Part shown: one piece after another, positions 58,201 to 60,443 of the stretch
Numbering within the stretch: the first letter of the stretch is position 1
Layout of the letters: every line of letters begins with the position of its first letter
From: an uncultured Gemmatimonadota bacterium
Lineage (GTDB): Bacteria > JAAXHH01
Direction of reading: 5' to 3'
Assembly: GCA_951812955.1 (NCBI GenBank)
Contig: OX638340.1
Coordinates: forward strand, 2,144,001 to 2,208,000
DNA: 64,000 bases
The notes under the pieces: model-generated
What the model was told of the DNA's origin: nothing
The model's database searches: none
Seen by the model: only the letters and a program-made list of their open reading frames with translations
Program-made: the position numbers and the translations under genes

Positions 58201-60443
58201 GCCAGATCGCTCAACTGGCTTGGAAGCGATCCAGTCATATTGTTGTTGGCAAGCTCCAGCGCTCTCACCCTACCGCCGGCCCCCACAGACACGCCGTACC
58301 ACTCGTACAGCGGCGCATCGCTCAGCCAGTTTTCATCGTTCGACCATGATGCCCCGTCTGTTGCCCTGTAAAGCGCGATCAGGGTGCCCGAATCGCAGAA
58401 GACGGCGCCTCTCTTCGTTGAGATTCCGCTGAGCCACTTCTGGAATGCCGGGGTGCTGGGTATACACAGATCCGTAGATTCCATCTCAAGTGACTCAGGT
58501 TTTGTCTGAATAAGCGCCGGCGGCAACGGTCCGGTGAGTTCACGGTTATGGCTGAGACTCAGAATCCGCAGGCTTTTAAGGTTGCCCAATGCTGGCGGAA
58601 TTTGACCCGATAACCGATTCCGGCTGAGATGCAACCGTCGAAGGTTAGCCAGATTGCCCAGCTCAGGCGGAATCGAGCCGGACAGCTCGTTGTTATCAAG
58701 ATACAGACCTTGCAGGTTTTCAAGGCTCCCCAATGCTGGCGGGATCGGACCGGACAACTCGTTGCTCCCAAGATTCAGCTCTTGCAGGTTTTTCAGGTTG
58801 CCCAATACTGGCGGAATCGAGCCGGACAGCTCGTTGCCCCCAAGTTCCAGATATTGCAGGTTTTCAAGATTGCCCAGTTCAGGAGGAATCGGTCCCGACA
58901 ATTCGTTGCCCGCAAGATACAGATACTGCAGATTTTCAAAGCTGCCCAGTTCGGGCGGGATCGGACCGGACAATTCATTGTTCCAAAGACTCAGGTATTG
59001 TAGGTTTTCAAAGCTGCCCAGTTCGGGCGGGATCGGACCGGATATACGATTTCGGTAAAGATCCAGCTTATGTAGGCTGTCCAGGTTGCTCAACTCGACC
59101 GGGATTGAGCCGGACAACCCGTTCTCTTTGAGAACCAGGCTTGTGACGCGGCCCACGACGTTTGTCGTGACTCCGTACCACGCTTCGAGCGGCCCGTCGC
59201 TCAGCCAGTTGTCGTTGTTGCCCCAATTGGGGCCGTCGGTGGCGTTGTAAAACGCGGTCAGCCCCGCTCGATCAGTGCGGTCATCTGTGACCATTATCTC
59301 CACATTGGCAGACGCGCTGCCGGCACGCGCCGTGACCGTTGCGCTGCCGTTGCCGACCGCCGTCACCAGACCCTGAGAACTCACCGTCGCCACCGACGCG
59401 TCGCTGCTCTGCCAGTCCACGACCGCACCAGCTACCGGCTGGCCGTTCTGATCGAGCACCGATGCCGTCAACTGCACAGTCTCCCCCAGGGACATCAGCG
59501 TCGCCGCCGCCGGCTCGATTACCACGCTGCCCGCAGACTGCATGACCGTCACCGGGACGCTCCCGGACGCGCTGCCGGCACGCGCCGTGACCGTTGCGCT
59601 GCCGTTGCCGACCGCCGTCACCAGACCCTGGGAACTCACCGTCGCCACCGACGCGTCGCTGCTCTGCCAGTCCACGACCGCACCAGCTACCGGCTGGCCG
59701 TTCTGATCGAGCACCGATGCCGTCAACTGCACAGTCTCCCCCAGGGACATCAGCGTCGCCGCCGCCGGCTCGATTACCACGCTGCCCGCAGACTGCATGA
59801 CCGTCACCGGGACGCTCCCGGACGCGCTGCCGGCACGCGCCGTGACCGTTGCGCTGCCGTTGCCGACCGCCGTCACCAGACCCTGGGAACTCACCGTCGC
59901 CACCGACGCGTCGCTGCTCTGCCAGTCCACAACCGCACCAGCTACCGGCTGGCCGTTCTGATCGAGCACCGATGCCGTCAACTGCACAGTCTCCCCCAGG
60001 GACATCAGCGTCGCCGCCGCCGGCTCGATTACCACGCTGCCCGCAGACTGCATGACCGTCACCGGGACGCTCCCGGACGCGCTGCCGGCACGCGCCGTGA
60101 CCGTTGCGCTGCCGTTGCCGACCGCCGTCACCAGACCCTGGGAACTCACCGTCGCCACCGACGCGTCGCTGCTCTGCCAGTCCACAACCGCACCAGCTAC
60201 CGGCTGGCCGTTCTGATCGAGCACCGATGCCGTCAACTGAGCCGTCGATCCTAAGGAGTTGAGCGTAACCGACGAAGGGGTGATCGTAACTCGGGTGGGT
60301 ATGGGCGTTACGGAGACTGGAGGAGGCTGTTCAGGCGGTTTCGGCTTTGTCGGGCTGTCCTTGCCACAGGTAACCATCGCAAGAAGGGTCAGACATGCTA
60401 CTGGGATCAGAATAAGACGTGAGACGGCTGGAGGCGGAGTCAT
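55281..60443 (-). CDS. 1720-aa secreted (possibly lipidated) modular protein: signal peptide, 4x Big_2 Ig-like domains, ~40 plant-type leucine-rich repeats in three blocks with Cys-containing caps, and a C-terminal reprolysin-like metzincin zinc-metalloprotease domain
   Basis: N-terminus MTPPPAVSRLILIPVACLTLLAMVTCGKD. Four ~85-aa repeats SVVIEPAAATLMSLGETVQLTASVLDQNGQPVAGAVVDWQSSDASVATVSSQGLVTAVGNGSATVTARAGSASG. 24-aa LRRs such as LxxLxxLxLxxNxLSGxIPPELGN. HELGHNLNLFH (HExxHxxxxxH) followed by a Met-turn ...PDLMGYCDP. Confidence 0.8.
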   Translation of the reverse strand: MTPPPAVSRLILIPVACLTLLAMVTCGKDSPTKPKPPEQPPPVSVTPIPTRVTITPSSVTLNSLGSTAQLTASVLDQNGQPVAGAVVDWQSSDASVATVSSQGLVTAVGNGSATVTARAGSASGSVPVTVMQSAGSVVIEPAAATLMSLGETVQLTASVLDQNGQPVAGAVVDWQSSDASVATVSSQGLVTAVGNGSATVTARAGSASGSVPVTVMQSAGSVVIEPAAATLMSLGETVQLTASVLDQNGQPVAGAVVDWQSSDASVATVSSQGLVTAVGNGSATVTARAGSASGSVPVTVMQSAGSVVIEPAAATLMSLGETVQLTASVLDQNGQPVAGAVVDWQSSDASVATVSSQGLVTAVGNGSATVTARAGSASANVEIMVTDDRTDRAGLTAFYNATDGPNWGNNDNWLSDGPLEAWYGVTTNVVGRVTSLVLKENGLSGSIPVELSNLDSLHKLDLYRNRISGPIPPELGSFENLQYLSLWNNELSGPIPPELGSFENLQYLYLAGNELSGPIPPELGNLENLQYLELGGNELSGSIPPVLGNLKNLQELNLGSNELSGPIPPALGSLENLQGLYLDNNELSGSIPPELGNLANLRRLHLSRNRLSGQIPPALGNLKSLRILSLSHNRELTGPLPPALIQTKPESLEMESTDLCIPSTPAFQKWLSGISTKRGAVFCDSGTLIALYRATDGASWSNDENWLSDAPLYEWYGVSVGAGGRVRALELANNNMTGSLPSQLSDLANLEVLNLSSNSGLIGPVPHSFTSIGLLELELEGTQLCAPVDTQFQEWLDGIPQQKVMNCTEMRRDYYPLAALYNSTNGPNWTNSTNWLSDSRLDEWHGVATNSSGEATGLSLAANNLLGVLPPDIGQLIKLNRLSLGGNQLTGSIPPELGQLYNLTVLYLGENRLTGSIPPKLGQLHNLATLFLGGNQLTGSIPPELGQLQNLTELSLGGNQLTGSIPPELGQLHNLENLNLNFTRLTGSIPPELVQLGALEKLGIQGTSISGPIPTEIGQLGNLEWLGLDFNQLSGPIPTEIGQLGNLKTLQLSKNQLSGPIPLEIGQLGNLEILHLTNNQLTGPVPSEIGQLGNLVILQLSNNQLSGPIPLEISQLGNLERLWLANNQLTGLIPPELGQLGNLEQLRLSYNRIRGNIPRTFGGLVGLKSLGLTDNADMSGVLPPTLTNLDLEELLLGGTQLCAPSDPGFQDWLRGIPNNRVADCGVGGGGSAAYVTQATQSLAYPVPLMAGEDALLRVFITSESDPDAALPPVRATFYERGAEVYAVDIPGSGTTIPRQIEEGDLSATANARIPGRVLAPGLEMVVEIDPDGGLDPALGISGRLPREGRMPVDVVNLPPFELTLIPFLWTEHPDESYLAQIDGLNAESDLFRLTRDILPVGDFVLNVHEPVSISVDPVWENRSEVFRLTGVIATMEGGAGHYMGMLRNGGGRGELPGNVTISGLSGFTIAHELGHNLNLFHAPCGDAGGPDPEYPYPDGSIGAWGYDLLEGRLVDPSTPDLMGYCDPAWISDYNFNKAMGYRLSQTRETRMAAAFAPSTRSLLLWGGVNSDGDIVLEPAFAIDAPASMPRLDGPYRIVGEDEGGGALFSLRFGMAEIADGEGGSFAFVIPVRLDWSSRLSRIVLSGPEGVATLGGEESEYDGDDRSAALLLDPVDGRVRGLLRNWTAPSTGLQTARRALPEPGLEVVVSWGVPDLSDWNR
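59311..60240. repeat. 255-bp tandem repeat, ~3.6 copies; copies 2-4 differ by about 2 nt. Encodes the Big_2 domain array of the giant protein.
   Basis: Unit gacgcgctgccggcacgcgccgtgaccgttgcgctgccgttgccgacc... recurs at 59311, 59566, 59821 and 60076. The three identical 68-aa plus-strand ORFs at 59339, 59594 and 59849 are its antisense signature. Confidence 0.8.

Follow-up and report, generated by a model that had tools for sequence, protein, structure and literature searches.

A near-identical Big_2 repeat array in a predicted lipoprotein gene of an uncultured Gemmatimonadota bacterium: a variable-length stalk candidate

The DNA analyzed here is a window of 64,000 nucleotides from an uncultured Gemmatimonadota bacterium (assembly GCA_951812955.1, contig OX638340.1, positions 2,144,001 to 2,208,000); all coordinates below are those of the window unless a scaffold is named. 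Its minus strand carries an open reading frame (ORF) of 5163 nt (55281-60443) encoding 1720 aa, and a tandem array of a 255-bp unit lies in the N-terminal part of this gene. The predicted product consists of a leader with a cysteine at position 26 (Cys26), a tether, four Big_2 domains, three blocks of leucine-rich repeats (LRRs) and a metzincin protease domain, an order read from the translation together with Pfam matches to Big_2 (6.6e-37), LRR_1 (6e-72) and Peptidase_M66 (4.7e-07). An earlier note, made from the letters of the sequence, had drawn attention to near-identical 255-bp repeats, about 3.6 copies, inside a giant gene. The array does lie inside the gene, for which "giant" is a generous word.

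Tandem Repeats Finder delimited the array at 59311-60239, with a period of 255, 3.6 copies (3.64 units across the tract), 99% matches, no indels and a score of 1837. The start is the one given in the earlier note, and the end falls one base before the 60240 given there. The 255-bp periodicity was also present when the gene was compared with itself at an offset of 255 nt: only 2 mismatches were found among the 674 positions of gene nt 205-878 (nt 513 versus 768 and nt 813 versus 1068), in agreement with the roughly two substitutions noticed before. Both mismatches occupy third codon positions and are synonymous (GTT/GTC for Val and TCC/TCT for Ser). This homogenized minus-strand tract is the sole array with a period of at least 200 and such identity in the window, and the identity is far beyond chance.

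The 255-bp unit corresponds to 85 codons and is in frame within the ORF. Big_2 (PF02368) was recognized by Pfam in four stretches, with 125.8 bits against a gathering cut-off of 22.8, which bears out the earlier assignment of the repeats to this domain family. Cut in domain register, the four units lie on the minus strand at 60042-60296 (unit 1), 59787-60041 (unit 2), 59532-59786 (unit 3) and 59277-59531 (unit 4). From unit 1 to unit 4, the Val site (60186, 59931, 59676, 59421) reads T, T, C, C and the Ser site (60141, 59886, 59631, 59376) reads C, C, C, T. A single nucleotide in 255 separates unit 2 from unit 3. Unit 1 has a mosaic structure: all its differences from unit 2 are confined to the first 57 nt, which are of the type found in unit 1 of an ortholog, and over the other 198 nt the two units agree completely. 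In unit 4, one site and the last 34 nt depart from unit 3, and this diverged end runs into the first LRR cap. Among the interior units, identity is 100% for the protein and 99.7% for the DNA.

Upstream of the array, the protein begins with a lipoprotein-type signal peptide ending in ...LAMVT-C26 (60366-60443, minus strand; Cys codon 60366-60368), as read from the translation. A Pro/Lys-rich tether of residues 27-49 (60297-60365, minus strand) joins the anchor cysteine to the first Big_2 domain. In a canonical lipobox, [LVI][ASTVI][GAS]C at the end of the signal peptide (the PROSITE rule), position -1 is Ala, Gly or Ser. The leader motif ...TCGKDSPTKP (60357-60371) is conserved in 56 of 121 homologs (within the range P0001-P0117), in which T-C-G-K-D-S-P-T-K-P recurs near letter-for-letter in proteins that are otherwise 40-60% identical. 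This conservation suggests a lipobox variant with Thr at -1, followed by a sorting or tether signal past the cysteine, and Cys26 is predicted to be lipidated.

Downstream of the array lie the LRRs. Block 1 (58374-59276, minus strand; translation and Pfam) opens with a cap, NWGNNDNWLSD...WYGV, followed by 24-residue (72-bp) repeats, and contains a 144-nt unit of two LRRs at 58584-58727. Block 2 (57954-58373, minus strand) is short and has its own cap, and block 3 (56766-57953, minus strand) is built of 72-bp units at 77-83% identity according to the repeat finder and the translation. All three blocks open with the cap NW....NWLSD...W.GV and consist of 24-residue LRRs. The LRRs at 56766-59276 belong to the plant receptor-kinase type, following the pattern LxxLxLxxNxLSGxIPxELGxL and opening with a cap at the N-terminal end. 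Among solved structures in the PDB their closest relatives were the FLS2 ectodomain (E 3.8e-151) and GSO1, which ranked above any bacterial LRR protein.

The C-terminal region (55284-56765, minus strand) comprises a beta-sandwich, a metzincin catalytic domain and a second beta-sandwich. The catalytic motif HELGHNLNLFH was located at 56001-56033; its three His and its Glu are invariant in 36 family sequences, and Asn replaces the metzincin Gly. The Peptidase_M66 score was above the Pfam cut-off, with 81 of 306 profile positions aligned, and the C-terminal domain shows the features of the metzincin catalytic fold. No PDB chain was matched by sequence search with the C-terminal 494 aa, and Foldseek was uninformative. 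The head of the protein is composed of plant-type LRRs joined to a putative StcE/adamalysin-like metzincin protease, which is an unusual combination.

Copies were compared within and between genes after Big_2 units had been cut in register. Four genes were used, namely the window gene, the two L014 genes P0029 and P0061, and the ortholog on L015, with nt 57-221 of the unit taken as its core. Core DNA identity within genes was 99-100% in the window, 99% among P0029 units 1-3 and 100% in the part of the L015 array that follows an assembly gap, versus 65-77% between genes. P0029 unit 4 was only 87-88% identical to units 1-3 of the same gene. Units were closer to each other within a gene than to the same-position units of orthologs or paralogs, which is the pattern of concerted evolution. 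P0029 (97% matches over its array at the DNA level) also has the layout of the window gene, with a diverged first edge, an identical interior and a diverged last edge, built on a unit sequence of its own. A literature search on concerted evolution of Big_2 domains returned nothing specific to it.

The edges of the array are informative. The 57-nt 5′ edge of window unit 1 matched L015 unit 1 at 47 of 57 positions and window unit 2 at 30 of 57. The core of the same unit matched window unit 2 at 164/164 positions and L015 unit 1 at 125/164. The core of L015 unit 1 can still be told from the neighboring units of that gene (109-123/164). At the other end, the 34-nt 3′ edge of window unit 4 matched P0029 unit 4 at 25 positions and window unit 3 at 13. 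By this comparison window unit 1 is a recombinant of an ancestral first unit and an interior unit. Because its edge is orthologous and its core paralogous, gene conversion or unequal crossing-over, rather than plain duplication, would account for it. Selection on the protein is not the source of the identity, since synonymous sites are identical too.

The same tendency was seen across the family. Tandem units at least 90% identical, nearly always with a period of 85 aa, were found in 75 of the 121 homologs. The homologs had been ranked by their bit scores with a query that itself has four Big_2 domains, a ranking that favors Big_2-rich proteins. About a dozen homologs have at least three copies at about 92-99%, and P0003 has 10.5 copies at 98.8%. 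A marker motif of the Big_2 unit occurred 0 to 15 times per homolog, with some matches falling outside the array.

Two scaffolds and one long contig bear on the state of the array in relatives. The scaffold L001 (ENA ERZ23495265, scaffold_39) is the only close relative; it is 97.7% identical over 12.7 kb downstream, and the 589 bp that lead up to and into the gene are 100% identical to those of the window. Exactly 100 N occupy 592-691 of this scaffold, from inside unit 1 to inside the penultimate unit. Its Val site is C in unit 1 (T in the window) and its Ser site is T in the penultimate unit (C in the window); variant bases sitting in different copies in the two sequences would fit continuing exchange between copies. 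The 144-nt two-LRR unit, single in the window, is tandemly duplicated in L001 (about 1599-1886), with 2 differences between the copies and 48 additional residues in the encoded protein, P0007. This documents, for the LRRs of the gene and not for its Big_2 array, an in-frame change of repeat number between close strains. The second scaffold, L015, carries the syntenic ortholog (85% identity in the flanking PD40-like gene, 73% on the Aminotran_4 side). It has exactly 100 N at 7897-7996 within the array, which comprises about eight units as scaffolded. P0121 (1651 aa), recorded in NCBI and ENA on a contig of 3,813,436 bp, agrees without a difference with the window protein from residue 70 to residue 1720.

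Taken together, the array is genuine coding sequence, and we consider it probable that it encodes an Ig-like stalk, potentially of variable length, whose copies are kept near-identical by DNA-level recombination within the gene. Four tandem 85-aa Big_2 domains follow directly upon the leader and the Pro-rich tether and precede the LRR/protease head. Repeated homologous recombination between units, by gene conversion or unequal crossing-over, would keep their DNA almost identical, overwriting the interior of the array and leaving the two outer edges free to diverge. The same recombination could gain or lose whole 255-bp units in frame, in steps of 85 aa. The length of the stalk might then set the reach of the LRR and protease head from the membrane anchor, as in the Periscope Proteins discussed below. 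Surface exposure, an extended rod-like form of the Big_2 stalk and present-day variation in copy number are predicted features of this model.

Several points weigh against it. The window gene and P0029 both have exactly four units, so the number could be held stable. No second gap-free assembly of a gene at least 90% identical was found, and copy-number variation between strains was not demonstrated; the only such relative, P0007 on L001, is gapped in the array. A scan of genome contigs gave relatives at no more than 62% identity, and no further strains were detected among JGI metagenome contigs scanned with protein patterns and a 29-nt unit junction. When the leader and the edge of the first unit (69 aa) served as query, no homolog was returned, probably owing to a word-index limit. 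The placement of variant bases in L001 comes from a short-read scaffold, which may mix copies. The lipobox ...LAMVT-C has a non-canonical Thr at -1, and exposure at the surface is only predicted.

The same observations can be set against other explanations. The earlier note had left the choice between a very recent expansion and ongoing gene conversion. A single young tandem expansion, for example from two to four units and with no continuing exchange, would make identity a matter of youth: 99.7% is what a young duplication should show, and the patterns T, T, C, C and C, C, C, T are compatible with a few stepwise duplications. Such a history does not account for the mosaic first unit, whose overwritten core beside an orthologous 5′ edge needs recombination between non-identical units. 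It would also call for many coincident young expansions, as many homologs with different unit sequences are equally near-identical, and it sits poorly with the variant bases that occupy different copies in L001. We regard expansion alone as unlikely; of the two alternatives in the earlier note, recent homogenization at the DNA level stood (99-100% within genes versus 65-77% between them), and recombination between units fits better. More improbable still is that the copy number in the window is an artefact of assembly, collapsed or over-expanded. Assemblers do fail at this array, as exactly 100 N interrupt it in both related short-read scaffolds, L001 and L015, and in this the array is the assembly trouble spot that it had been said to be. 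The window itself is free of any N, and residues 70-1720 of the encoded protein are matched in full by P0121; a 3.8-Mb contig would imply long reads, for which an array of 0.93 kb is trivial. The units can, moreover, be told apart by the 5′ edge of unit 1, T/C in unit 2, C/C in unit 3, and C/T with the 3′ edge in unit 4. Since edges and variant bases distinguish them, at least four distinct units exist, and the count in the window is probably exactly four. The warning that the true number may differ from four holds in general, and the doubt is weak for this window.

Least probable of all, to the point of being scarcely credible, is that the array is a classical contingency (phase-variable) locus or that purifying selection acting on the protein preserves its identity. 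The repeat does lie within a predicted envelope protein gene, and the earlier note had counted arrays of this kind among contingency loci. In the strict sense such loci have a short unit that shifts the reading frame or the spacing of a promoter. A unit of 255 bp, or 85 codons, alters only the length of the protein; gain or loss leaves the frame intact and cannot act as an on/off switch for the gene. Purifying selection fails on other grounds, since synonymous sites are as identical as non-synonymous ones and selection on a protein cannot yield that. "Variable-length stalk candidate" is the fitting label, rather than "contingency locus".

Conversion between paralogous genes was also considered as a source of the identity and rejected. 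The paralog P0058, on the same contig, has a single Big_2 domain at 48% identity, and the units of the neighboring paralogs P0029 and P0061 are only 65-72% alike. Within 55281-60443 the G+C content at third codon positions (GC3) is a mosaic: it reaches 0.82 in the Big_2 array, falls to 0.55-0.65 across the LRR blocks and is 0.66 for the protease domain. This mosaic might stem from a foreign source of the LRRs and the protease, or else from biased conversion within the array. GC-biased gene conversion as the reason for the high GC3 of the array was set aside, because the housekeeping neighbors have a similar GC3 (0.76-0.82).

In invasin, intimin and Leptospira LigA/LigB, tandem bacterial Ig-like domains (Big_2/Big_1) build an elongated stalk that displays a binding domain at its far end. 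The window protein shares the domain family Big_2 with these rods. Neighboring domains in the known rods have diverged from each other, unlike the interior units described here, with their 100% protein and 99.7% DNA identity. The head differs from the StcE (peptidase M66) and adamalysin metzincins in having no PDB sequence match, Asn in place of the Gly of HExxHxxGxxH, and an alignment over 81 of 306 Pfam positions.

Near-identical domain repeats kept alike by recombination are already a familiar pattern. The closest known class is that of the Periscope Proteins, which include SasG, Rib, Sgo_0707, CdrA and others (Whelan et al., 2021; PMC8201768); the window protein is a candidate member by its sequence. 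That paper describes repeats that each encode a folded domain, have high DNA identity and stand between a cell anchor and a functional head, and proposes that intragenic recombination adds or removes units and so alters the projection of the head. The defining trait of the class is a repeat number that varies among closely related proteins, those at least 90% identical. Its methods set detection thresholds of more than 50 aa per repeat and at least 80% identity. With 85-aa units, 100% protein identity in the interior and four folded globular domains of the Pfam family Big_2, the window array lies within these bounds, and the protein has a like order of predicted anchor, stalk and head. The polarity is different: the window protein carries its predicted anchor, a lipoprotein-type leader, at the N-terminus and its head at the C-terminus, whereas the ligand-binding head of Periscope Proteins is described as N-terminal. 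The window protein also differs in its LRR and metzincin protease head, in its uncultured Gemmatimonadota-like source organism and in having only four units.

It has been reported that LRR proteins are enriched in sponge-associated metagenome-assembled genomes (MAGs) (Robbins et al., 2021; PMC8163846). The window protein resembles such eukaryote-like LRR proteins of sponge symbionts in being rich in LRRs and in having relatives from apparent sponge metagenomes; that paper describes neither the architecture of Big_2, LRR and metzincin domains nor its repeat arrays. Relatives of the gene were found on scaffolds named ROBB21-1_SAMN1394321x, in MAGs such as RHO2_bin_67 and on long-read MAG chromosomes with uuid names. 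We take ROBB21-1 and RHO2_bin, from the naming schemes, to denote sponge metagenomes. This is consistent with PMC8163846. A sponge origin of the window itself is suggested by these relatives.

More tentatively, the whole family might be under selection for length tuning, with dozens of paralogous putative lipoproteins, built of Big_2 domains, plant-type LRRs and a StcE-like protease, whose stalks are homogenized by gene conversion. The number of units could then change quickly, and with it the reach of a host-matrix-binding protease. The bacteria would in that case be uncultured Gemmatimonadota and Acidobacteriota, probably sponge symbionts. We think this rather doubtful; if true, the Periscope principle would also hold for diderm symbionts, in proteins with a lipid anchor at the N-terminus.

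With this array, a diderm lineage that is uncultured and probably host-associated joins the bacteria with DNA-identical domain repeats in envelope proteins. If the length variation is true, it would offer a simple marker of strain-level adaptation in sponge microbiomes, testable by polymerase chain reaction. The array and its relatives also mark break points of short-read metagenome assemblies, where gene calls lose the true N-terminus. In public protein sets both the N-termini and the numbers of Big_2 domains of this family are under-reported, and domain counts are trustworthy from long reads only. The gene calls of P0007 and P0048 restart inside the array downstream of scaffold gaps, so that the leader is lost; in P0121 it is lost on an ungapped contig through a start call at an internal TTG.

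The large gene and a DDE_Tnp_1 transposase ORF (61178-62038, plus strand; Pfam 1.1e-23) fill the slot 55167-62676 between an Aminotran_4 gene and a PD40/Tricorn-like gene. The window RibBA is 93% identical to Gemmatimonadota/Gemmatimonadetes MAG proteins, and in none of five contigs at this level of RibBA identity (L016-L020, 3.2-3.7 Mb) was the large gene found in the slot. The PD40/Tricorn-like and Aminotran_4 genes are adjacent in L018-L020 (44 bp apart in L018), and in L016 and L017 EcsC stands between them, with or without a transposase. The slot of L015 holds the large gene and a second Big_2/LRR gene. As the slot is empty or otherwise filled in relatives, the large gene is an accessory insertion from a large paralogous family; several of its paralogs per contig were visible among the homologs. 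From this arrangement the slot looks like a hot spot for variable insertions. A promoter-like sequence, TTGACT-16-GAGAAT (60496-60523, minus strand), lies about 55 bp upstream of the ATG of the gene; it is weak, and the consensus scan that found it was not significant (4 sites versus 2.3 expected from shuffles).

Some further features were observed. At L014:3115-3942 and 5954-6228, the P0029 locus contains a 269-bp tandem array in three copies over several small ORFs and also collagen-like repeats; the latter, 45-bp repeats encoding GPxGPxGPKGDTGNT, are in a 436-aa ORF upstream. In the window, a riboflavin operon (RibD, riboflavin synthase, RibBA, lumazine synthase, NusB) is located at 50340-54153. 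Rfam at gathering thresholds gave no FMN riboswitch and no other RNA family in the whole window. Three tandem paralogous genes at 15160-23110 encode proteins of 803-804 aa, each with duplicated MacB_PCD and FtsX permease domains.

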